Virus record (IMG/VR): IMGVR_UViG_2861079508_000003
Span: 1 to 39,249 of that record
Reading direction: 5' to 3' (one strand)
Length of the DNA stretch: 39,249 nt
Source of the DNA: a virus
Taxonomy: Duplodnaviria; Heunggongvirae; Uroviricota; Caudoviricetes
Within the stretch, counting starts at the first letter, position 1. The number at the start of each line of letters is the position of its first letter. Of the stretch, positions 1 to 9,186 are shown in pieces. Under the pieces are notes generated by a model. That model made no database searches, had not been told where the DNA came from, and saw nothing but the letters and a program-made list of their open reading frames with translations. A program made the position numbers and the translations under genes.

Positions 1-192
1 TCAGGAGCATTTCTGATTAACGCCACCGTTAAGAATCCATCCTTCAACAGCTTCACGAAGGTATGATTTTGGGTGGGTTCTGACTGGCTTCGGAAATCCG
101 TGCCGTTTGGTATAGTTCCAGATTGTCTGACGTGATGAAACACCGAGCTTGTTCATCACTTCTTTCTCAGGAATCAGGCTGGTATCGGTCAT
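1..192 (-). CDS. xis: Excisionase / AlpA-family DNA-binding protein (63 aa)
   Basis: Small basic protein with the AlpA/Xis-type pattern (..GVSSRQTIWNYTKRHGFPKP..); sits at the extreme left, where a lambdoid int-xis pair ends. Family assignment from recalled knowledge. Confidence 0.65.
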   Translation of the reverse strand: MTDTSLIPEKEVMNKLGVSSRQTIWNYTKRHGFPKPVRTHPKSYLREAVEGWILNGGVNQKCS

Positions 193-292
193 CTTAATTC
201 TCCAGGCAAAAAGAAACCGCCATATAGCGGCTCTATCAGATATGTACAGGCCTCATCGAGTGTGAGGCGGTGTGATTTCTTTATTTCCACTC

Positions 293-508
293 TTAATGTT
301 TGTCAGTGAATGGTTTCTCCATCTCCATTAATGCCTTATTCATCTCCTTTCGTAACTCTATAGCCATCCTGACGGCTTCAACCTGAGCAGGATGTCGGTT
401 AATTGCTGGAGAATATCGTCGGGAGCGAAGGATTGAGAAAACAAAGATAATGCAAGCAACTATCTGAATTGCATTGCATGTTATTGATACAATGTGAATT
501 GCAGCCAT
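293..508 (-). CDS. Hypothetical small protein with hydrophobic N-terminal segment (71 aa)
   Basis: ORF-track ORF on the same strand as the leftward early operon; no recognisable family. Confidence 0.3.
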   Translation of the reverse strand: MAAIHIVSITCNAIQIVACIIFVFSILRSRRYSPAINRHPAQVEAVRMAIELRKEMNKALMEMEKPFTDKH

Positions 509-531
509 CTACTGCCCCCAAAAAACCGCCA

Positions 532-699
532 TCAGGCGTCTTGGTGTTCTTTCAGTTCTTCAATTCGAATATTGGTTACGTCTGCATGCGCTATCTGCGC
601 CCATATCATCCAGTGGTTATAGCAGTCGTTGATATCCTCTGCTTCGATAACCCTGTCAAATGGCTCTCCATTCCATTCACCTGTGACTCGGAAGTGCAT
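532..699 (-). CDS. Hypothetical small protein (about 55 aa, MHFRVTGEWNGEPFDRV...), not in ORF track
   Basis: Manual translation of the minus strand gives an ATG-initiated ORF in the correct operon orientation; under the 60-aa track cutoff. Coordinates approximate. Confidence 0.25.
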   Translation of the reverse strand: MHFRVTGEWNGEPFDRVIEAEDINDCYNHWMIWAQIAHADVTNIRIEELKEHQDA

Positions 700-857
700 T
701 TATCATCTCCATAAAACAAAACCCGCCGTAGCGAGTTCAGATAAAAGAAATCCCCGCGAGTGCGAGGATTGTTATTGTCTTTTCTTCGTGCATTTGTCGC
801 ACTTTCGGCACCATCCAGATAGGCACATCCGTCCGCAATTAACACATATAGGCCACA

Positions 858-1139
858 TCATTTTTCCTCTTTTGGTTTATGAATCTGAATGGTCATGCCA
901 CTTTGAGTGGTGACTACAATGACAGAACCAGGCTGAAGGCTGTTAAGATTGAATGCTTCGTAAAACGAATCCAATGCCAGTGCTTTTTTATTCTTTCGGT
1001 TCCACCAACGCCATCCCTTGCTACAGGCTACACTGACAATCCACTGTCCACTCCTGTAAGCCATATAAAACCAGATGAGCAAAACCTGAAGGAATGCTAT
1101 CCAGTCAATAATCGTATATTTCGCGAAGGAGTCCATCAC
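858..1139 (-). CDS. Hypothetical membrane protein (93 aa)
   Basis: Hydrophobic N-terminal stretch; start overlaps the upstream gene stop by 4 nt (1136-1139), typical of a coupled phage operon. Confidence 0.45.
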   Translation of the reverse strand: MMDSFAKYTIIDWIAFLQVLLIWFYMAYRSGQWIVSVACSKGWRWWNRKNKKALALDSFYEAFNLNSLQPGSVIVVTTQSGMTIQIHKPKEEK

Positions 1140-1927
1140 TTCACCTCCTGCGGCGGTTCTGGTAGTGGCATCCAGTGGGTTACACCGCCAATTGGTTCAT
1201 CGTCGTCGTACTCCAATGCGGCTATATAGAACCCGTCACGACGAGAATAAGAAATCCCGGACATTACAATGCCATCCGAAACAACAATAATGTCACCCGT
1301 TTCTTCCGGCATTCGCTCACTACAGCTTATCCAACCATCCGGAGTTACCGGAGTTGGTCCATCGAATTCGGGCATGTCAGGACCTTTTCTGATAGCTTTA
1401 GCCAGCTCCAGCGGGTCATCGTAAAGCCAGTCGCCAGTTTGTGGGTGATTTGCTTCTGCAAGCTGCGCAGCCCATTCAAGACCATCTTTTTGACCTTGGA
1501 GATAATCAAGCGGCAACTCTTCATGATTACTTGCAGGTTCGGCACTATGAAGCATGGCAGCGCGGCAGGCGTTCCAGCCTCTTACCTCTGCAATAGCGGC
1601 AACCGCATCAACCGCGTACATGCTAAGAGGATTAGGAATTGGTTTTTCTTCCGGTACTACTGGCGCTGGAGGGGCGGCGTAAATGCCCTCTATCACTAAA
1701 TGTTTGCGCTCAAAATCATCTGGCTCTCGATGATATACGTAACTCCAGTCACCAAGGTTATCATTGCGCCTGCAACGGAAACCTATCGGCTCTGCTTCCA
1801 GCGATGCCAGCGCAATTCGTGCCAGTTCTTCCGCTTCTTCTGCTGGCAGTACAACGTTGCTACCAGGTCCGTATGTTTCGCGCCACTGCTTGATTGTCAG
1901 CAGTCGCTCTTTGGTTATAGTGGTCAT
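1136..1927 (-). CDS. DUF551-like phage protein (263 aa)
   Basis: C-terminal segment (..DGWISCSERMPEE..THWMPLPEPP) resembles the DUF551 domain common in lambdoid early-left regions; 4-nt overlaps with both neighbours. Confidence 0.6.
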   Translation of the reverse strand: MTTITKERLLTIKQWRETYGPGSNVVLPAEEAEELARIALASLEAEPIGFRCRRNDNLGDWSYVYHREPDDFERKHLVIEGIYAAPPAPVVPEEKPIPNPLSMYAVDAVAAIAEVRGWNACRAAMLHSAEPASNHEELPLDYLQGQKDGLEWAAQLAEANHPQTGDWLYDDPLELAKAIRKGPDMPEFDGPTPVTPDGWISCSERMPEETGDIIVVSDGIVMSGISYSRRDGFYIAALEYDDDEPIGGVTHWMPLPEPPQEVK

Positions 1928-2133
1928 TTGTTAATCCTCAAAACTTTATGCCCGGGCGCAAAAGCACGCGTTTTGTCTTTGCTTATTCGCCAGCCATCCT
2001 TGCGCGCCTCTTTTGCACAGCCAGCCCATGACGTACCTATATACTCACCGAAGTCTGGCGACTTATATTTGCCATCTGTACACTGGAGGCAATCACAATA
2101 GAGATGCATGGTGTAACTTGCAGCGATAGCCAT
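1924..2133 (-). CDS. Small Cys-rich (putative zinc-binding) protein, about 69 aa from internal ATG
   Basis: CDC..C and C..C pairs; the internal Met at 2133 has an AAGGAG-like RBS and abuts the stop of the upstream ORF. The track's longer version (1924..2205) would overlap that ORF. Confidence 0.4.
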   Translation of the reverse strand: MAIAASYTMHLYCDCLQCTDGKYKSPDFGEYIGTSWAGCAKEARKDGWRISKDKTRAFAPGHKVLRINK

Positions 2134-2134
2134 A

Positions 2135-2323
2135 TCACTCTCCTTTAGTGCGCAAGTGGTTTTTCCAGCGGTTTTGCGCCGCGCTGGGCTTTTTGCAAAA
2201 ACCACAATCCATCATCCCGTAATATTTCATCAACCCCATCCGTCGGTTGCTGAGTCTCACCCACTGCCAGACGCCAGGAGCGTTTCTACGAACTAACAGA
2301 ATCTTTGCTTTACGGTTTTTCAT
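2135..2323 (-). CDS. Hypothetical protein (62 aa)
   Basis: ORF-track ORF; its start overlaps the stop of a manually found upstream ORF in an ATGA arrangement. Confidence 0.3.
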   Translation of the reverse strand: MKNRKAKILLVRRNAPGVWQWVRLSNRRMGLMKYYGMMDCGFCKKPSAAQNRWKNHLRTKGE

Positions 2324-2496
2324 CGCTTTGCTCTCCTGCGTCTCTTTGCTGCTCGTCGTGCCGCTGCAATACCGGTATGGCGGCGCTTTGGTGCCGGGAT
2401 GATGTTGTCAGCCATCAGGACATGTGGCTTTGCAATTAGCGCAGAAGCCCAAAAACGAGTCGGGTACGGTAACAAGCCGATACATGCCACACGCAT
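2320..2496 (-). CDS. Hypothetical small protein with Arg/Lys-rich C-terminus (about 58 aa), not in ORF track
   Basis: Manual translation (MRVACIGLLPYPTRFW...RRAAKRRRRAKR); ATG overlaps the stop of the upstream Ea22-like gene (TAATG), and its own stop overlaps the next start. Confidence 0.3.
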   Translation of the reverse strand: MRVACIGLLPYPTRFWASALIAKPHVLMADNIIPAPKRRHTGIAAARRAAKRRRRAKR

Positions 2497-3185
2497 TACT
2501 CACCTCCTTTGATGCGAATGCCAGCGGCACGGGAATCATTCCATCGCTTTACTTCTTCACGAATTACGTCAATGCATTCTTTCGAATCCATTAGGTAATC
2601 TTCATCAAAAAGCCTTTCCTGTTCGTTTTCTATCGCAACAATGATTGCTTCAACTAACTTTTGTGCCTGAGAACCACTTTCTAACTCTGCAATGCGCTTC
2701 TCTGCGGCTTCCAGCTTCTCGCGCATATCGTCAACGTACTCGACCAGAGAACCGCCAGCAGGAATTTCGCACTCCTCGACCAGTTGGAAGTAGATATCAG
2801 CTGCGGCCCGTGTGTTGCTATACCTAGCGTCGCCCATCTCACCTTCACGAAGAGCATCGCGTTCGGCGGTAAGATTGGCTATTTTGCTGTCTTTGCCTTC
2901 CAGCTCAACGCGCAGCTTCCAAACCGTAAGCGCAATCTCCTCGTTCTCCTGATCGCGGCTTTTGATGTATTGCAGGTTTCTTTCCCGTTCATCCAGCAGT
3001 GCCAGCACGGTTTCTGGTCCGGTCAGAAATTTGAAGGCGTTGAGCGCATCAATATCCACACCGTAATCTTTAAGTTCCTGTTCACTTAACAAGTCATCAT
3101 CAGCTGGCAACATTAACAGGCGTTCCATTGCTGGAATTGCACGTTCCGCCGCCTCACGCAGCGCCTGATAGTCAATCTTGCTCAC
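2496..3185 (-). CDS. Ead/Ea22-like coiled-coil protein (229 aa)
   Basis: Acidic, coiled-coil-rich protein in the int-proximal accessory region; resembles recalled Ea22 family proteins. 4-nt overlap with upstream gene. Confidence 0.5.
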   Translation of the reverse strand: MSKIDYQALREAAERAIPAMERLLMLPADDDLLSEQELKDYGVDIDALNAFKFLTGPETVLALLDERERNLQYIKSRDQENEEIALTVWKLRVELEGKDSKIANLTAERDALREGEMGDARYSNTRAAADIYFQLVEECEIPAGGSLVEYVDDMREKLEAAEKRIAELESGSQAQKLVEAIIVAIENEQERLFDEDYLMDSKECIDVIREEVKRWNDSRAAGIRIKGGE

Positions 3186-3733
3186 TGGTTGCCTCCTTTG
3201 CGAAGCTGGTCGGCGAACAAACGTACACCAGACGCTTCACTGCGTAGAAACTTAACGGCATAATCAAAACCACCTCGTTCTGCGTCGTCTGCTCCGTTGT
3301 CGAGGTTATCTGCGTACATCTCTACCCCCTGCGCCCGTACTTCAGCCAGGAAAGCATCGGTGGCTGGGGTTTCGATATCGTTAATTTCAGGAAGAATCTC
3401 TTCCCATGTGGCGATATCGCCATTCAAATGCCATCCGGCAATTCCACTGGAGTTATCCGCAACACTGCGAACGGCTTCAATAGTTTCGAGCATTACCGCA
3501 TTCTCCGCCGCAAGCGCCGAAAACTTCTCGTGTGCCAACTTAACAGCCGCATCAGCCTGCTTAATTGACTCAATCGCTTTCTGGTGGTCTTCGGACAGAG
3601 CCGAAATCTTGGCCTCCGCTTCAGCAAATTTACGCACCAGATATTCAGCGTTTGTTTCGTTAACCTTTAAATCTCGTGGGATGCATTTACCTTTCAGAAA
3701 ACCATCTATCTCAATTAGTGACATTTGTTTCAT
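3182..3733 (-). CDS. Ead/Ea22-like protein (183 aa)
   Basis: Similar composition and position to the neighbouring Ea22-like gene; coupled start/stop overlaps. Confidence 0.5.
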
Positions 3734-3894
3734 TTCTTCCCACTCCGCAACATCGCATTCAGATATTTGTTTTGATTCACTGATGGAAAAGAATTTCTCT
3801 TAAGCAATTCCTCTCTCGATGGCATTGGCTTTACGCGTTGGCGAATAATCATTTCTGCCGGAAGAATGCCGGGATTGTATGCAAGTCCTCTCAT
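3730..3894 (-). CDS. Hypothetical small protein (about 54 aa), not in ORF track
   Basis: ATG overlaps the stop of the 96-aa gene and its stop overlaps the start of the next gene (ATGA at both ends). Confidence 0.3.
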
Positions 3895-4181
3895 GATTTA
3901 CTCTCCACGAACTGGTCAACGGCCATGCTAAGTGACACACCTAAAGTCTCGATATGCTGCTGAATATCCTGTAGCGTCTGCGCCTGAGATAACAGGATTT
4001 CACGGTTGCATAATTCTTTAACCAGATGCTCAAACTTGCTGTAATAACCGATACGGCTTAGTGTTTCTTTCCCTGCATTCTCGCCTTCTTTGATAATTCC
4101 TCTTTCGCTAAGAATCAGATCGTGTTTGGTTCCGGTAATAACGTATTTGCCTAGGTCGATGTTTAGCTTCATTGTTTTCAT
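3891..4181 (-). CDS. Hypothetical protein (96 aa)
   Basis: ORF-track ORF in operon orientation immediately downstream of abc2; no family recognised. Confidence 0.45.
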
Positions 4182-4191
4182 TGTTAATTAC

Positions 4192-4485
4192 TCAGTCATT
4201 ACTGATAGCGCCATAGCGTGAGCGGTAATTACGCAGGCGCGGGTCAATTTCAGGGAAGTGGGTATATGTGGCTTTGCGGAATGGTCGGATTGATGTCTGG
4301 TAAATTCGCTCTCGTTCTTCTTTCTCTGCAAGCCATATACAGTGGCGAAATTCCTTTTCCTCTTTCGTTTCCTGCGGTAGCGACATTATCCGATCGTAGT
4401 TTCTTCTGAATTTATCCAGCACCTCCGATACGGAATTGCCGGAACAGCGGCGCGGGTCATCCGCACCATACAGAGGCGCTGGCAT
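4192..4485 (-). CDS. abc2: Anti-RecBCD protein Abc2 (97 aa)
   Basis: Near-identical over its length to the P22 Abc2 sequence as I recall it (MPAPLYGADDPRRCSGNSVSEVLDKFRRNYD...); expected position next to erf. Confidence 0.8.
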   Translation of the reverse strand: MPAPLYGADDPRRCSGNSVSEVLDKFRRNYDRIMSLPQETKEEKEFRHCIWLAEKEERERIYQTSIRPFRKATYTHFPEIDPRLRNYRSRYGAISND

Positions 4486-4508
4486 AATGGAATCCTTATT
4501 TTGCTAAT

Positions 4509-4892
4509 CTAGAATGGAATTGAATCGTCGTATTCAGGATGATTTTGATGATTGCTACTTTGCTGCTGTTGGCTGTTTCCTGAAGCTGCAAATCCAATCT
4601 TCGCATTCAGTAATTCAAGAGTGATTGATTGACCATTTTGCCCCTGATAAACATCAACCCTGATGTTTTCTCCGGTAATTTCTACAATGCCACCTTCAAC
4701 AAGAACACTACGGTAGTAATCCGCTTGCGCTCCCGGCTTGGCAAATACAACGGCGCTGTAGTTTGTCCATTCTTTCTTTTTTGTCTGGCGATCGTAATAC
4801 TGAACGCCAGCACGGATGTTGAATCCGATATTTTCCCCGGCCTGAAACTCTCTTGCGGGTTTGTTTAGTCTTACAGTAATCGAATGTGCCAT
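4509..4892 (-). CDS. ssb: Phage single-stranded DNA-binding protein (127 aa from internal ATG)
   Basis: C-terminal acidic tip ..PEYDDSIPF matches the SSB DDDIPF tail, preceded by a Gly/Gln-rich linker; ATG overlaps the erf stop (TAATG). Confidence 0.7.
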   Translation of the reverse strand: MAHSITVRLNKPAREFQAGENIGFNIRAGVQYYDRQTKKKEWTNYSAVVFAKPGAQADYYRSVLVEGGIVEITGENIRVDVYQGQNGQSITLELLNAKIGFAASGNSQQQQSSNHQNHPEYDDSIPF

Positions 4893-5497
4893 TAAGCAGC
4901 CGCTCCTTCTAATTCGTCTCGTCTGATGTTGTAAACGTCCTGCGCTTTGTGCTGCTCCGGTGTGCCTTCGAGCATCTTCCACGCTTTGGCGAACGCCTGT
5001 TTAAGCTCTTCTACGGTGTTTTTCTGCAATGCTGCGTCAGTGAATGCTTTTAGAACCTGTTCAGGTGTAGGTGATGGTTTTGATTGCTTTGCTGCTGCGT
5101 TCTGCTGATGTTTATGCTCGTCGGTATCTGCATCTTTCGCATCATCAATGCCGAACAAACCATTGAGGCAATACTTGCGTGCATAAGAGCTTGTAGCTCC
5201 AGTAACTTGTGCAGAATCCATTCCTTTCTTGCTTTCTTCCTCTCGTGCAAGAGCGGTTGCCGTATGACTGTTTTCGCCATCGGTAATAGTTGCCGTGGCT
5301 TTCACATAATACCGATCACCAATCAACACAACTTCATCGCTGATTGATAAAAACAGGCCATTCAGTAACGGCTTAACGCCTTCAAGAATGTCTTCGCAGC
5401 TTCTGTATTTATATTTACCGAATGAGTTGTACTGATTTTTTGGCGCATTCAGATTCTCCTGAATGGCTGCCAGTCTTGCGTAAAATTCTTTGCTCAT
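4892..5497 (-). CDS. erf: Essential recombination function protein Erf (single-strand annealing protein)
   Basis: From ATG at 5497 the N-terminus MSKEFYARLAAIQENLNAPKNQYNSFGKYKYRSCEDILEGVKPLL.. closely matches recalled P22 Erf; the track's longer form starts at an upstream alternative codon. Confidence 0.85.
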   Translation of the reverse strand: MSKEFYARLAAIQENLNAPKNQYNSFGKYKYRSCEDILEGVKPLLNGLFLSISDEVVLIGDRYYVKATATITDGENSHTATALAREEESKKGMDSAQVTGATSSYARKYCLNGLFGIDDAKDADTDEHKHQQNAAAKQSKPSPTPEQVLKAFTDAALQKNTVEELKQAFAKAWKMLEGTPEQHKAQDVYNIRRDELEGAAA

Positions 5498-5598
5498 ATG
5501 TTTGTTCTCAGAATGGACATTCCCCAAGGAAATAACGCTGATTTAATACTTCGACTCGGGACAAATTAAGGCATACCAGCATTCCTTCGCGGTCGCCA

Positions 5599-5757
5599 TT
5601 ATGGCGATACCAGAGAGCTTTCTGCGTGTACATGCGTCTCTGTAACTTGCTCTCCTTCACTGTGGTTGCAAGTGACATGAATATCTCCTTCGTTACCGAT
5701 TAATTCTTTCATCTGACGAATGAATTCTTCGTCTGACCAGTTATCTGTAAAACTCAT
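5599..5757 (-). CDS. Hypothetical small protein at the kil position (about 52 aa)
   Basis: Internal ATG overlaps the cIII stop (ATGA); in lambdoid phages the gene after cIII is kil. Function inferred from position only. Confidence 0.35.
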   Translation of the reverse strand: MSFTDNWSDEEFIRQMKELIGNEGDIHVTCNHSEGEQVTETHVHAESSLVSP

Positions 5758-5924
5758 GGACGGCCTTGTTGTTTCAAAATATCCCAAAGCTTTTCGAGCA
5801 AACTTTTCATTCTTGGTTGTTTAAAGTCTGCTCCGGTTAAAATATTTTTTCGTGAATGCTGCACCGATAAAATCGGGTTGAAAGGGCGAACCGATGCCGC
5901 CCCTGCAATAGCGAACTGTTGCAT
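5754..5924 (-). CDS. cIII: CIII-like protein (FtsH inhibitor; 56 aa from internal ATG)
   Basis: MQQFAIAG...SLLEKLWDILKQQG parallels lambda CIII (MQYAIAG...SLLERI..LIDILNQPG); AGGAG RBS upstream; correct place in the PL operon. Confidence 0.65.
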   Translation of the reverse strand: MQQFAIAGAASVRPFNPILSVQHSRKNILTGADFKQPRMKSLLEKLWDILKQQGRP

Positions 5925-5988
5925 AGGATGCTCCTTCTGTTTGATTGCATAACGAAAACGCCTCAAGTGAAGCGTTATTGGTATGCAT

Positions 5989-6014
5989 ATAAAAAAGCCC
6001 TCGCACTGGAGGGC
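5989..6014 (-). terminator. Putative rho-independent terminator in the PL operon (tL-like)
   Basis: Hairpin GCCCTC-GCACTG-GAGGGC followed on the minus strand by a T-run; lies upstream of cIII, presumably read through under N antitermination. Confidence 0.5.
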
Positions 6015-6150
6015 AAAGAAGATTTCCAATAATCAGAACAAGTCGACTCCTGTTTAGTTACGAGCGACATTGCTCCGTGTATTCACTCGCTGGAATGAAT
6101 ACACAGTGCAGTGTTTATTCTGTTATTTATGCCAAAAATAAAGGCCACCA

Positions 6151-6402
6151 TCAGGCAGCCTTGTTGTAAATGTTGCAGGTATCAAGTAAGTAATTAGATG
6201 GAGCGCCATAAATTATGAATTCATCGTTTGTCGGGTCCATCTCCATCTCTTGGCCTATTGCCATTCTTGCGTCAGTGTCATCAGCGGCGAAGCATAAAAC
6301 AGCCCACGCACCCATTGTTTTAAAAAGAACTGCAATTGGCTGTGGTTTTACTGAATTTGCGTTAGCGCGAAAATCACAAATCGCACTTTCATGAAATTCC
6401 AT
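6151..6402 (-). CDS. Hypothetical protein (83 aa); C-terminus ..NKAA faintly reminiscent of Ral
   Basis: ORF in the N-to-cIII interval where ral/sieB-type accessory genes lie in lambdoid phages; similarity to Ral is weak and limited to the C-terminal end. Confidence 0.45.
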   Translation of the reverse strand: MEFHESAICDFRANANSVKPQPIAVLFKTMGAWAVLCFAADDTDARMAIGQEMEMDPTNDEFIIYGAPSNYLLDTCNIYNKAA

Positions 6403-6464
6403 ATATCACCTCAAATAAGTGGTTTGCTGCCAAAACAATGAACCATCCGGAAATTCCAGATAGT

Positions 6465-6692
6465 TCATAATTCACTCTTCAATACTTCCAACTTACTAAT
6501 CGCCGATAGATATCCGCGCTGATAGGGCATCATCATTCCTTCGAGCTTGCCACTTCTTAACTCCTCCCTGAGCAATTGTATTGCTTGATCAATAACCTCT
6601 GCCTTAGCGTCCTTTATGGCTTGCTTGCGGGGCTTTGCTTTCTGCTTTGGCAGATTTCTCAAGCATGATGGAATGTATGTCTGATTCATCAC
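6465..6692 (-). CDS. Hypothetical protein (75 aa)
   Basis: ORF immediately downstream of N in the same orientation. Confidence 0.45.
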   Translation of the reverse strand: MMNQTYIPSCLRNLPKQKAKPRKQAIKDAKAEVIDQAIQLLREELRSGKLEGMMMPYQRGYLSAISKLEVLKSEL

Positions 6693-7001
6693 TTACCTCG
6701 CTGTAACCTGCTTACTTGTACGATGACCAGCTGCGAAAAGCGCAACTTCTGGCAAACAAACGCTTCCGCTATTCGCATCTGTATTTGATTTGCTAATGAT
6801 GCCGAGTGATATTGCTTTTTCAGAAATGCTTAAACGCTTTCTCGGGGCTTCCTGAACAGGTTCCTCACTGTCTGTGCCGAAGATCGAATCGATGATGTTG
6901 CATATAGCATCACGCTCGATAGCCAGCTTTCTGCGCCGCTCATGACGGCGAGTTTTGGCATTTCCTGCAAATGTTGATTTTCCGTACACGATTACCGTCA
7001 T
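6693..7001 (-). CDS. N: Antitermination protein N, P22 gene 24 type (102 aa)
   Basis: From ATG at 7001: MTVIVYGKSTFAGNAKTRRHERRRKLAIERD.. carries the Arg-rich motif and closely matches recalled P22 gp24; nutL lies upstream. Confidence 0.8.
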   Translation of the reverse strand: MTVIVYGKSTFAGNAKTRRHERRRKLAIERDAICNIIDSIFGTDSEEPVQEAPRKRLSISEKAISLGIISKSNTDANSGSVCLPEVALFAAGHRTSKQVTAR

Positions 7002-7200: not shown

Positions 7201-7229
7201 ATAGTACGATGTGTACTTTATTGAGTCAA
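7201..7229 (-). promoter_or_regulatory. Putative PL promoter (-35 TTGACT, 17-bp spacer, -10 TACTAT on minus strand)
   Basis: Sigma70-like hexamers upstream of nutL/N, overlapping an operator dyad. Confidence 0.5.
7203..7217. promoter_or_regulatory. Operator-like dyad in OL (AGTAC-GATGT-GTACT)
   Basis: Perfect 5-bp inverted half-sites with 5-bp spacer, overlapping the PL -10; near-identical copies occur in OR. Weaker related sites near 7228-7242 and 7262-7276. Confidence 0.5.
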
Positions 7230-7354: not shown

Positions 7355-8014
7355 TTAACTAAATGTCTCTTCAGGCCACTGGCTGGCGATAACTTTCCCT
7401 ACTACGGAACAGCTATCATTGCATGGGATCATTGGATATTGCGGGTTTAGTGGTTGTAGGAACACCTGACCGCTATCCCTGATCAGTTTCTTGAAGGTAA
7501 ACTCGTCACCGCCAAGTCTGGCTATGCAGAAATCTCCTGGCTCAACAGCCTGCTCAGGGTCAACGAGAATTAACATTCCGTCAGGAAAGCTTGGCTTGGA
7601 TCCTGTTGGTGCGGTCATGGAATTACCTTCAACTTCAAGCCAAAACGCACAATCACTGGCTTTTTTGGTTGTGCTGACCCATCTCTCCGCATCACCTTTG
7701 GTAAAGGTTCTAAGCTCAGGTGAGAACATCCCGGCCTGAACATGAGAAAAAACAGGGTACTCATATTGTTTTTTAACGGGGGCAGATGAGTATTCGCCAG
7801 CAGGTGAAAATGTACCGTCGTGGTTGAATGAGACGTTATCAATACCAAGGTATTTAAACACCACACCAATCTCGTCAAGAGATGGATGACGAGATCCGCG
7901 CAACCAGTGACCAATTCCACCCTGCGTCATACCAAGCTCTTCAGCTAACTTCTCTTGAGTTATGCCGAGCTCTTTCATTCTGGATCTAGCCAGTTCATAC
8001 CATTTCATTTTCAT
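7355..8014 (-). CDS. cI: CI-type prophage repressor (HTH N-domain, LexA/S24-like autocleavage C-domain; 219 aa)
   Basis: N-terminal HTH (..[21 protein letters not shown]..) and C-terminal domain with ..[22 protein letters not shown].. as in P22 C2 / lambda CI; divergent from cro across an operator region. Confidence 0.85.
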
Positions 8015-8757: not shown

Positions 8758-9186
8758 ATGACTCCGTGTTTGGAATTTGGCGGTTTAAAGGACAGCAAGG
8801 GTTATGGAAGGGTTTGGATTAATGGGAAAAAAGTATTTGCTCATAGATTTGCTTATTGTGTGGCAAAAGGGATCCAGCTTGAAGATATAGATGGCTTAGT
8901 AATTCGTCACGCATGTGACAATCCTTCTTGTATTTTACCTTCTCATTTATGTGCTGGGACAAGTCAGCAAAACGCAAATGACATGGTGGAGAGAAAAAGG
9001 CAGGCATTTGGAAGCAGGAATGGTAGGGCAAAATTAACTGAAGATGATGTAAGAAACATCATTAGTGAATATATACCAAGACACCCCTTATTCAACACAA
9101 GGGCATTATCAAAAAAATATGGAGTAACGCCAAATTATATAGCTGCTATTTGCAGAGGTGAAAAATGGAAGCACATAAAAAAATAA
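8758..9186 (+). CDS. HNH homing-endonuclease-like protein (HNH_3-type core plus C-terminal HTH; 142 aa)
   Basis: ..SKGYGRVWINGKKVFAHRFAY..VIRHACDNPSCILPSHLCAGTSQQNANDM.. fits the HNH_3 pattern; inserted between cII and the replication genes. Confidence 0.7.
   Translation: MTPCLEFGGLKDSKGYGRVWINGKKVFAHRFAYCVAKGIQLEDIDGLVIRHACDNPSCILPSHLCAGTSQQNANDMVERKRQAFGSRNGRAKLTEDDVRNIISEYIPRHPLFNTRALSKKYGVTPNYIAAICRGEKWKHIKK

Follow-up and report, generated by a model that had tools for sequence, protein, structure and literature searches.

A chain of nine closely packed genes probably forms the accessory end of the PL early-left operon in a P22-like temperate coliphage

We analysed a window of 39,249 nucleotides (IMG/VR record IMGVR_UViG_2861079508_000003, positions 1–39,249), which carries a chain of nine back-to-back genes on the minus strand, running from position 4181 down to 858. 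All nine, including three lost to a 60-codon cutoff, look like real protein genes, and the segment very probably makes up the accessory end of the PL early-left operon in a temperate, P22-like coliphage. The chain genes are ordinary, non-essential accessory genes in a region of a type already known, and the chain is a new mosaic combination of known families. Every chain product matched a Pfam or PHROG family. The first-pass annotation had described the genes as unknown, which holds for their function but not for their families, because all belong to existing DUF, Ead/Ea22, or PHROG families. The features are summarized in Table 1.

Table 1. Chain genes and flanking features in the window.
Feature	Position	Strand	Assignment
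PL-like promoter	7229–7201	minus	TTGACT-17-TACTAT
Repressor-like ORF	7355–8014		
N antiterminator	6693–7001	minus	Pfam N_peptide, E = 2.9e-38
ERF	4892–5497	minus	
abc2 (anti-RecBCD)	4192–4485	minus	Pfam PF11043, E = 2.1e-63; adjoins chain upstream
DUF5405 gene, 96 aa	3891–4181	minus	Pfam PF17399, 25.4 bits (cut-off 21.6); phrog_154
DUF2737 gene, 54 aa	3730–3894	minus	Pfam PF10930, E = 3.4e-32, full length, 110.5 bits (cut-off 25)
183-aa acidic protein, P22 EaE/HK97 gp37/HK446 gp27 (Oad2) family	3182–3733	minus	phrog_614
Ead/Ea22-like protein, 229 aa	2496–3185	minus	Pfam PF13935, E = 1.3e-26, 94.3 bits (cut-off 27)
58-aa microprotein, pI 12.0	2320–2496	minus	phrog_13831, full length
62-aa basic ‘MKNRKAK’ microprotein, pI 11.3	2135–2323	minus	phrog_1380; RefSeq WP_000797276/9 in relatives
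69-aa protein, CxCxxC...H pattern	1924–2133	minus	RefSeq WP_000951706, exactly equal length
263-aa acidic protein, C-terminal DUF551, P22 EaA-like	1136–1927	minus	Pfam PF04448, E = 4.7e-15; phrog_60
DUF4752 protein, 92 aa	858–1136	minus	Pfam PF15944, E = 2.5e-36, 124 bits (cut-off 27)
Two terminator-like hairpins	770–749, 738–719	minus	consensus scan; just 3' of chain
xis-like HTH gene	1–192	minus	downstream of chain

The chain lies on the leftward early strand downstream of N and occupies the interval from the recombination module to xis/int. This agrees with the int-proximal early-left placement in the first-pass annotation, with N, ERF, and Abc2 upstream and the xis-like gene downstream. 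The PL-like promoter at 7229–7201 would drive transcription of the operon. The DUF5405 gene opens the chain 10 nt past the abc2 stop, and a gap of 158 nt follows beyond position 858. Consensus scans detected no promoter-like site on the minus strand within 858–4181, and the sole terminator-like hairpin on that strand of the interval was a weak one at 1245–1232. No Rfam covariance model matched positions 1–6500 at E ≤ 1. Partial matches to the region were found in 589 phage records and 4008 E. coli records, none of which covered at least 80% of it.

Regions at a like position, from the Erf/Abc2 module to xis, are P22 ‘ea’ and HK620 hkaD–hkaI, HK97 gp37–gp38, and HK446 gp27–gp29. The P22/HK97-like regions share the DUF5405, DUF2737, EaE-like, Ead/Ea22-like, and DUF551/EaA-like families with the window. 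The −4 overlap at the DUF2737/EaE-like junction is common to HK620, HK97, HK446, and the window, and HK446 also has that at the DUF5405/DUF2737 junction. Unlike the window, HK620, HK97, and HK446 lack the trio of 58-, 62-, and 69-aa genes at the corresponding position. [quoted passage not shown] The recombination module is Exo/Bet/Gam in lambda and Stx phages, whereas it is Erf/Abc2 in the window. Only the ea22-like and orf4 proteins of VT2-Sakai matched the window by tblastn (the 229-aa and 263-aa proteins, respectively), and its orf60a-, orf63-, and orf61-like proteins gave no match at E ≤ 1e-3. Assignment to the conserved lambda-type exo–xis block was rejected on the absence of orf60a–orf63–orf61. 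Both P22 ‘ea’ and lambda exo–xis are known mosaic accessory regions (PMC8614690, PMC7093339, PMC10834534), and linker-mediated exchange has been described in lambdoid phages (PMC2327257).

The eight junctions of the chain have gaps of −4, −4, −4, −1, −4, +1, −4, and −1 nt in chain order (five of −4, two of −1, and one of +1). Seven overlaps had been read earlier as ATGA or TAATG, and all seven were found at their coordinates on the minus strand. Four are ATGA (3891–3894, 3730–3733, 2320–2323, and 1924–1927) and one is TAATG (2494–2498), whereas those at 3182–3185 and 1136–1139 proved to be GTGA, that is, GTG starts. At 1136–1139, an alternative ATG at 1134–1136 overlaps the stop by a single base (TGATG) and agrees with the 1-nt overlap annotated by RefSeq in the homologue of the DUF4752 gene. 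The additional junction, between the 62-aa and 69-aa genes, is TGAtATG with a gap of 1 nt. Shine-Dalgarno-like matches of 4–7 nt precede every chain start except that of the DUF5405 gene and fall within the final codons of the gene before it. This geometry, with the stop and start overlapping or abutting at all eight junctions, suggests that the chain genes are translationally coupled.

It is alternatively conceivable, though rather improbable, that the overlaps reflect genome compaction only and that each gene initiates independently, with no functional coupling. The curated HK620 genome has 51 same-strand junctions, of which 17 are −4 or −1, and 51% of them are ≤ +1; because −4/−1 overlaps thus make up a third of the junctions, they are generic. 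Against this baseline, eight tight junctions in a row have a probability of about 0.005 under independence, so that the chain is denser than average but the same in kind. Most of the genes have a Shine-Dalgarno match of their own, and independent initiation is therefore possible. On the other hand, these matches are situated inside the preceding genes, so that ribosomes translating those genes would expose them, and the DUF5405 gene has none. Moreover, the overlap geometry is kept across divergent cassettes. The 58-aa gene is entered through a one-base stop/start overlap (TAATG or TAGTG) in a conserved Shine-Dalgarno junction in 91 of 104 contexts, and an ATGA junction leads into a gene starting with MKNRKAK, and divergent thereafter, in 100 of the 104.

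In regard to coding status, the three ORFs said to be missing from the ORF track (54, 58, and 69 aa, the last from an internal ATG at 2133) do exist. The in-frame dN/dS values of the six small genes were 0.05–0.39, whereas those of the two other forward frames were mostly about 1.0 (range 0.54–1.6); the loci were collected through protein-level matches, which biases these values toward intact ORFs. The first-pass annotation had proposed to judge the sub-60-aa ORFs by synonymous-biased substitution in related phages, and such substitution was found in the proposed frames only. The chain peptides were not found in the supplements of an E. coli Sakai Ribo-seq study or of phage accessory-gene screens.

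The DUF5405 product is 99% identical to HK446 gp29, and its gene gave the lowest dN/dS value (0.05), which is based on three variants only. The DUF2737 gene, which is shorter than the 60-aa cutoff, encodes a product with a pI of 11.0 and is flanked by ATGA overlaps on either side. It is annotated by RefSeq in relatives, its position is common to HK97, HK446, and HK620, and its dN/dS was 0.39 in frame versus 1.2–1.6 off frame.

The 58-aa microprotein was noted earlier as strongly basic; its N-terminal half contains proline and is variable, and its Arg-rich tail (TGIAAARRAAKRRRRAKR) is conserved. It forms 85 clusters with identities of 58–98%. Among 5426 complete E. coli genomes, 453 carry its gene. 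We take the tail to be compositionally like the Arg-rich RNA-binding motif of the lambda/P22 N proteins, as a resemblance only: the motif is N-terminal in N and C-terminal in the 58-aa protein, the two show no sequence homology, and a genuine N is encoded separately in the window.

It seems very improbable that the 58-aa ORF, perhaps along with others below 60 aa, is no gene but a fortuitous open frame in a recombination linker or spacer that separates the Ea22-like gene from the MKNRKAK genes, with conservation of the DNA alone. The interval does lack a RefSeq annotation in both close relatives, and no CDS is annotated there in 29 of the 40 E. coli records sampled. The ORF has no Pfam family, many of its variants carry amino-acid replacements, and its 3' end lies inside the conserved junction. 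Frameshifted forms are also frequent, occurring on many contigs (95 contigs for P0070), and the gene is therefore dispensable in prophages. However, dN/dS was about 0.29 in frame versus 0.98–1.05 in the other forward frames, and one of the clade-level tests gave an Sd of 17 versus an Nd of 6 (p = 2e-6). The synonymous excess extends even to the tail (pN/pS 0.07–0.10; 5–6 synonymous versus 1 non-synonymous). An ATG or GTG start with an ORF of 56–60 codons is kept in 81 of 82 unique DNA variants, the exception having ACG at the start and an ATG downstream, and the indels (one of 3 nt and one deletion of 21 nt) are in frame. A strong AGGAGGT stands 5 nt before the start. The interval has no Rfam match, and the predicted RNA structure over 2310–2510 showed no excess (fold z = +0.43).

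The 62-aa protein is conserved at both termini and variable in the middle (60 clusters); the dN/dS of its gene was 0.37 overall and 0.13, 0.56, and 0.46 in the N-terminal, middle, and C-terminal segments, respectively. Its AF2 model was of low confidence. The 69-aa protein, with four Cys residues, is the Cys-rich small protein of the first-pass annotation. Its start is the internal ATG at 2133 and not the GTG at 2205; homologues begin with M-(A/I)-I-A-A, and the gene is annotated by RefSeq in two relatives. It has 394 cluster representatives at E ≤ 1e-3 and a dN/dS of 0.19. The AF2 model of the 69-aa protein (pLDDT 78, pTM 0.61) gave no fold match in the PDB, and its matches in BFVD were uncharacterised phage proteins only.

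In other phages, one or two tandem ‘MKNRKAK’ paralogues follow the 58-aa gene, so that the 58-aa gene and one or two such genes constitute a conserved cassette that is usually unannotated. The genes preceding it mostly end in ...GIRI(K/N)GGE though their bodies vary, and the gene architectures downstream vary among phages. The 229-aa protein of the window ends in ...AAGIRIKGGE, the codons of which hold the Shine-Dalgarno sequence of the next gene. Carriers of the cassette amount to about 8% of complete E. coli genomes and include lambdoid prophages, Stx phages, and P1-like plasmids.

Two Ea22-like proteins had been proposed in the chain. The 229-aa protein is one, as its Pfam Ead_Ea22 match indicates, whereas the 183-aa protein is EaE/HK97 gp37-like; the latter had no Pfam match, PF13935 included, and the two proteins showed no BLASTP similarity to each other. 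The GTG start of the 229-aa gene, inside the GTGA overlap, is common to its homologues in VT2-Sakai and a P1-like record. The DUF551 protein predicted earlier is the 263-aa product, with the domain at residues 198–260 (56.6 bits; cut-off 22). The predicted membrane protein corresponds to the DUF4752 product, which has a single hydrophobic segment (Kyte-Doolittle 19-residue maximum of 1.78, from residue 8). The DUF4752 gene closes the chain, encodes 92 aa from the ATG at 1136 or 93 aa from the GTG at 1139, and has a dN/dS of 0.36.

The 183-aa protein is 81% identical to HK97 gp37 and 40% identical to HK446 gp27 (Oad2) over its full length (E = 7e-39, residues 1–183 versus 1–175). Its first ~36 residues are near-identical to those of Oad2, a 15-residue motif and DQLRKGGNQ are identical, and the gene order abc2, DUF5405, DUF2737, oad2-type gene is that of the HK446 locus. 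From the middle to the C-terminus, by contrast, it follows the HK97 gp37 type and not Oad2, giving a mosaic alignment. Oad2 has been shown by experiment to bind and block P2 OLD, an abortive-infection tRNase; HK97 is reported to be OLD-sensitive, and a 54% identical homologue in HK75 does not inhibit OLD (bioRxiv 10.64898/2026.07.10.737580). In view of the sensitivity of HK97 and the inactive HK75 homologue, activity of the 183-aa protein on P2 OLD is doubtful, and its target specificity, if any, probably differs from that of Oad2. It may inhibit an OLD-family or related defence nuclease other than P2 OLD.

The first-pass annotation had remarked that regions of this kind commonly hide host-takeover or anti-defence genes, and the literature backs this remark, given Abc2 upstream, the Oad2 homologue, and the Ea22-type gene (PMC7093339). 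One reading, to which we give a rather low probability, is that the chain is chiefly an anti-defence island, in which most of the small proteins would be inhibitors of, or decoys for, host immunity that senses phage recombination or RecBCD inhibition. Abc2 adjoins the chain, the gene content is strongly mosaic, and the 183-aa gene belongs to the Oad2 family and is placed as in HK446, in a locus that has been termed an anti-defence gene hotspot (bioRxiv 10.64898/2026.07.10.737580). However, that gene alone is linked to a known anti-defence protein, and HK97, which bears its closest homologue, is OLD-sensitive. A PADLOC scan, the library of which comprises defence and not anti-defence genes, was negative, and the small genes are under purifying or relaxed, not positive, selection (even the 62-aa middle has a pN/pS of 0.56). 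The anti-defence reading overlaps with the explanation that we favour.

A possible reading, though one at less than even probability, is that the chain mainly tunes phage development (lysis–lysogeny, induction timing) and host physiology, and not immunity. Ea22-type genes skew the lysis–lysogeny decision (PMC7093339); Ea22 is reported to be pro-lysogenic, and exo–xis genes of lambda and Phi24B are reported to affect lysogenisation and induction (PMC7093339, PMC3824215, PMC10789677). The chain has an Ead/Ea22 gene, followed by the trio as in the Stx phage VT2-Sakai, and DUF551 also occurs in YfdS, which is tied to oxidative-stress tolerance. Against this stand the missing orf60a–orf63–orf61 block and the functional data, which among the exact families of the chain concern Ea22-type proteins only.

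The explanation that we favour is that the chain is the distal accessory part of an N-antiterminated PL operon, comparable to P22 ‘ea’ and the variable part of lambda exo–xis. Terminating ribosomes would reinitiate at the following start, and the chain products would therefore be made together, early after infection or induction. Lying next to the gene for anti-RecBCD Abc2 and including an Oad2-family member, the chain genes would supply dispensable accessory functions acting on the host. Nucleic acid or an acidic partner is the most plausible ligand of the very basic 54-, 58-, and 62-aa microproteins, the 69-aa protein is putatively zinc-binding, the DUF4752 product would be a small membrane protein, and the 229-aa protein an Ea22-type coiled-coil protein that may bias lysis versus lysogeny. 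More speculatively, and with a probability that we set low, the cassette after Ea22-type genes is an uncharacterised host-directed module and, separately, the 183-aa protein hits another OLD-family or related nuclease. The cassette might act by binding nucleic acid or ribosomes, or it might serve anti-defence in a new way. Because the final codons of an upstream gene usually hold the Shine-Dalgarno sequence of the next one, C-termini such as ...KGGE, ...KGGNQ, and ...TKGE arise. As relatives suggest, the conserved junctions would act as short homologous ‘linkers’ for the exchange of cassettes between lambdoid prophages and P1-like plasmids.

We analyzed the chain of nine minus-strand ORFs that runs from 4181 down to 858. 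The first-pass annotation had described seven of its gene junctions as ATGA or TAATG overlaps; all seven were found where it placed them, but two read GTGA and use GTG starts. At the one at 1136–1139, an alternative ATG at 1134–1136 has one base in common with the stop codon. The gene-to-gene distances along the chain are −4, −4, −4, −1, −4, +1, −4, and −1 nt, and a 158-nt gap lies beyond 858. Every chain start except that of the first gene has a Shine-Dalgarno-like match (4–7 nt) in the last codons of the preceding gene, and C-termini such as IKGGE, RKGGNQ, and RTKGE occur because the Shine-Dalgarno of the next gene sits in those codons. The 3′ ends within 2496–3185, 3182–3733, 2135–2323, and 1136–1927 encode K-G-G-E/N, T-K-G-E, or Q-E-V-K, since AAGGAGG of the next gene is read in frame. 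The curated HK620 genome has distances of −4 or −1 at 17 of its 51 same-strand junctions, and 51% of the distances are ≤ +1. Such overlaps are common in these phages; eight tight junctions in a row are denser than average, yet the same kind of thing.

Features of the chain and its surroundings
Feature	Position	Strand	Remark
Repressor-like gene	7355–8014		upstream of chain
PL-like promoter	7229–7201	minus	upstream of chain
N antiterminator	6693–7001	minus	Pfam N_peptide
ERF	4892–5497	minus	upstream of chain
Abc2, anti-RecBCD	4192–4485	minus	adjoins chain upstream
54-aa protein	3730–3894	minus	DUF2737
183-aa protein	3182–3733	minus	P22 EaE/HK97 gp37 type
229-aa protein	2496–3185	minus	Ead/Ea22 family
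58-aa protein	2320–2496	minus	phrog_13831
62-aa protein	2135–2323	minus	phrog_1380
69-aa protein	1924–2133	minus	phrog_926
EaA-like protein	1136–1927	minus	C-terminal DUF551 domain
DUF4752 protein	ends 858	minus	last chain gene; one hydrophobic segment
ATGA junctions	3891–3894, 3730–3733, 2320–2323, 1924–1927	minus	read from sequence
TAATG junction	2494–2498	minus	read from sequence
GTGA junctions, GTG starts	3182–3185, 1136–1139	minus	read from sequence
Two terminator-like hairpins	770–749, 738–719	minus	downstream of 858
xis-like gene	1–192		downstream of chain

The region is the early-left operon of a P22-like (Lederbergvirus-type) coliphage. Several terminator-like hairpins lie upstream of the chain on the same strand, and a 127-aa gene stands between ERF and Abc2. 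Downstream of 858, the hairpins are followed by two small genes and then the xis-like gene. A consensus scan of the minus strand within 858–4181 gave no promoter-like site and a single weak terminator-like hairpin (1245–1232). The best DNA matches of the region were to HF4s, HK620, HK106, and others; pieces of it occur in 589 phage records and 4008 E. coli records, none of which covers 80%, and the region is strongly mosaic. Because Pfam identifies an Ea22-like protein only once and the lambda orf60a/orf63/orf61 block is absent, the region belongs with the P22/HK97 'ea' type and not with lambda exo-xis. In the early-right operon, an HNH_3 endonuclease ORF (8758–9186, plus strand; Pfam E = 9e-7) separates the cII-like gene from the replication genes, an unusual position that suggests a homing-endonuclease insertion.

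All chain products fall in existing families. The DUF5405 protein is 99% identical to HK446 gp29. Two Ea22-like proteins had been reported in the chain; the 229-aa protein is one by Pfam, but a BLASTP comparison of the 183-aa protein with it, made to see whether the two are related, gave no similarity. NCBIfam and PADLOC gave no match for ten proteins (the nine chain products and Abc2), and PDB sequence and profile searches with eight proteins or families gave nothing significant; the best match (E = 0.04), in which a 'GWRI' motif aligned with a plant ZF-HD homeodomain, was judged spurious. HK620 hkaF and hkaD were rejected as equivalents of the small genes, the sequences being unrelated.

Three ORFs absent from the gene track had been proposed as genes. 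The 54-aa ORF is a gene, with a full-length Pfam DUF2737 match (E = 3e-32) and RefSeq annotation in relatives. The 69-aa ORF begins, as proposed, at an internal ATG (2133), where RefSeq has a 210-nt gene and homologues open with M-(A/I)-I-A-A. The 58-aa ORF was less certain, as it lacks a Pfam family and RefSeq leaves its interval without a gene in both close relatives and in 29 of the 40 E. coli records sampled. We therefore collected its relatives from IMG/VR and the protein database (clusters down to 58% identity, mostly 51–61 aa long). Pairwise Nei-Gojobori dN/dS over 57 unique DNA variants was 0.29 in the proposed frame versus 1.05 and 0.98 when the two remaining forward frames were read, for loci fetched via protein-level matches. 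The neighboring genes gave comparable in-frame values (62 aa, 0.37; 69 aa, 0.19; DUF2737, 0.39; DUF4752, 0.36; DUF5405, 0.05) and mostly about 1.0 off frame (range 0.54–1.6). The synonymous excess was significant among clade representatives of the 58-aa ORF, e.g. 17 synonymous versus 6 non-synonymous changes (p = 2e-6). Its Arg-rich tail (codons 37–58) had a pN/pS of 0.07–0.10, and the N-terminal half was looser (0.3–0.6). A search with a DNA profile returned 82 unique segments; all but one of these, 81, have an ATG (63) or GTG (18) start and a 56–60-codon ORF; the odd one has ACG at the start position and an ATG downstream. Its indels are in frame, namely one of 3 nt and, in the Stx-phage clade, a loss of 21 nt that leaves 51 aa, and variants of the gene with a frameshift are present on many contigs. 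An Rfam scan of 1–6500 (E ≤ 1) gave no match, and RNA folding at the locus gave no structure signal (z = +0.43). A non-coding 58-aa ORF is thus unlikely. The small ORFs, with synonymous-biased substitution in frame, are conserved as the first-pass annotation expected of genes, and they behave as coding sequence. Three N-terminal peptides of the small genes were absent from the supplements of an E. coli Sakai Ribo-seq paper, and six from those of two accessory-gene screen papers.

The 58-aa gene belongs to a conserved cassette. Across 104 distinct contexts, its upstream neighbors have varied bodies, most ending in ...GIRI(K/N)GGE; in 91 contexts the upstream stop and the 58-aa start share one base (TAATG or TAGTG), with a conserved Shine-Dalgarno junction in front, and a gene starting with MKNRKAK follows via ATGA in 100. 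In other phages, too, the C-terminal tag ...GIRIKGGE recurs among upstream genes whose bodies are unrelated. These conserved boundaries agree with module exchange mediated by short conserved flanking sequences in lambdoid phages, a published idea that a passage of PMC2327257 cites from Clark et al. 2001. The MKNRKAK gene diverges after its start into several types and often occurs as two tandem paralogues; tandem copies of 58 and then 62 aa with ATGA overlaps were seen in loci L038, L057, L025, and L253 (MH445380.1, 2666–3027). The paralogues have conserved N- and C-termini and a variable middle (pN/pS 0.13, 0.56, and 0.46 by segment); positive selection was considered for the middle, where 0.56 points instead to relaxed constraint. 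The cassette is present in 453 of 5426 complete E. coli genomes, and plasmids of ~90–100 kb, including at least one P1-like record, account for 220 of its 516 places in E. coli. Stx phages, including 933W and VT2-Sakai, carry it directly after an ea22 homologue. In the Stx2 phage VT2-Sakai (AP000363, 2330–3050), the long ORFs orf8 and orf7 are both mis-extended and mask the 51-aa gene (the 58-aa gene with a 7-codon in-frame deletion) together with the 62-aa MKNRKAK and 69-aa genes. Over the 51-aa interval, 933W records have no annotation. The P1-like MH445380.1 carries, at 620–3541, EaE-like, Ea22-like, 58-aa, two MKNRKAK, and 171-aa genes, then EaA/DUF551, a 2.9-kb stretch devoid of annotation. 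The pI values of the 58-, 62-, and 54-aa proteins are 12.0, 11.3, and 11.0, respectively, and the most economical guess is therefore that they bind nucleic acid or an acidic partner.

In regards to the 69-aa protein, the family is larger than word-based searching suggested: at E ≤ 1e-3 there were 394 cluster representatives (50% identity), and almost all of them are proteins of 60–80 aa that stand alone. They follow the pattern L-Y-C-D-C-x-x-C ... A-R-x-x-G-W ... (C)-x-(A/C)-P-x-(H/C) (alignment A6) and have no Pfam family. The AF2 model (pLDDT 78) had no significant match among PDB folds, and its BFVD matches were uncharacterized phage proteins only. C13, C15, C18, and H62 could plausibly make up a candidate zinc site.

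HK446 gp27 (Oad2) is reported to bind P2 OLD, an abortive-infection tRNase, and to keep it from being activated; the authors of that report relate it to P22 EaE (July 2026 preprint, 10.64898/2026.07.10.737580). The HK446 gene order (Erf, gp31, Abc2, gp29 (DUF5405), gp28 (DUF2737), gp27) is identical to that in the window. Full-length alignment of the 183-aa protein with Oad2 gave 40% identity (E = 7e-39), with near identity at the N-terminus and in two motifs. Because it is 81% identical to HK97 gp37, HK97 is listed as OLD-sensitive, and a 54%-identical HK75 homologue is inactive (10.64898/2026.07.10.737580), the protein is classed by homology and position only, as an Oad2/EaE family member with putative activity and target and uncertain specificity. 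The protein is itself mosaic: residues 1–36 are common to HK97, HK446, and HK620, residues 37–70 are unlike all three, and residues 71–183 are of the HK97 gp37 type. A 56-aa ORF directly upstream of erf (5508–5678, minus strand; no Pfam match) matches HK446 gp33, which is reported to be the OLD trigger, in position and length; a comparison made to see whether it is that trigger showed no detectable similarity to gp33.

The sequence and its comparison with relatives show nine back-to-back genes under purifying selection, an N-type antitermination operon upstream, and conserved Shine-Dalgarno-plus-overlap junctions at which the mosaic is apparently reassorted. The chain would be co-transcribed from PL, with reinitiation-type translational coupling along it; compaction without coupling is a rival account of the tight junctions. 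The products may manipulate the host early after infection or induction: those next to Abc2 would serve counter-defence, the Ea22-type protein may tune lysis-lysogeny (PMC7093339, PMC10834534), and the basic microproteins would bind nucleic acid. Rival readings take the chain for a possible anti-defence island or for a means of developmental tuning. The anti-defence, developmental-tuning, and compaction readings are compatible with one another.

Both the phenomenon and the region are familiar, every gene family is already in public resources, and the exact gene combination in the window is new. The result is chiefly one of annotation and prioritization and does not alter present understanding of these regions. 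A 60-aa ORF cutoff, and often the RefSeq pipeline too, overlooks a conserved 58-aa gene that is under selection and occurs widely among E. coli prophages, Stx phages and P1-like plasmids included. A homologue of a newly described anti-OLD protein is now placed in this phage, and the mosaic is seen to keep its joints, a Shine-Dalgarno with an overlap at each gene boundary, conserved. Along with the 58-aa gene and the Oad2-family homologue, the sizeable 69-aa Cys-containing phage family is a point to retain. Should host immunity or gene expression prove to be the target of the basic small proteins or of the Oad2-like protein, they would be additions to the catalogue of phage counter-defence and host-takeover factors.
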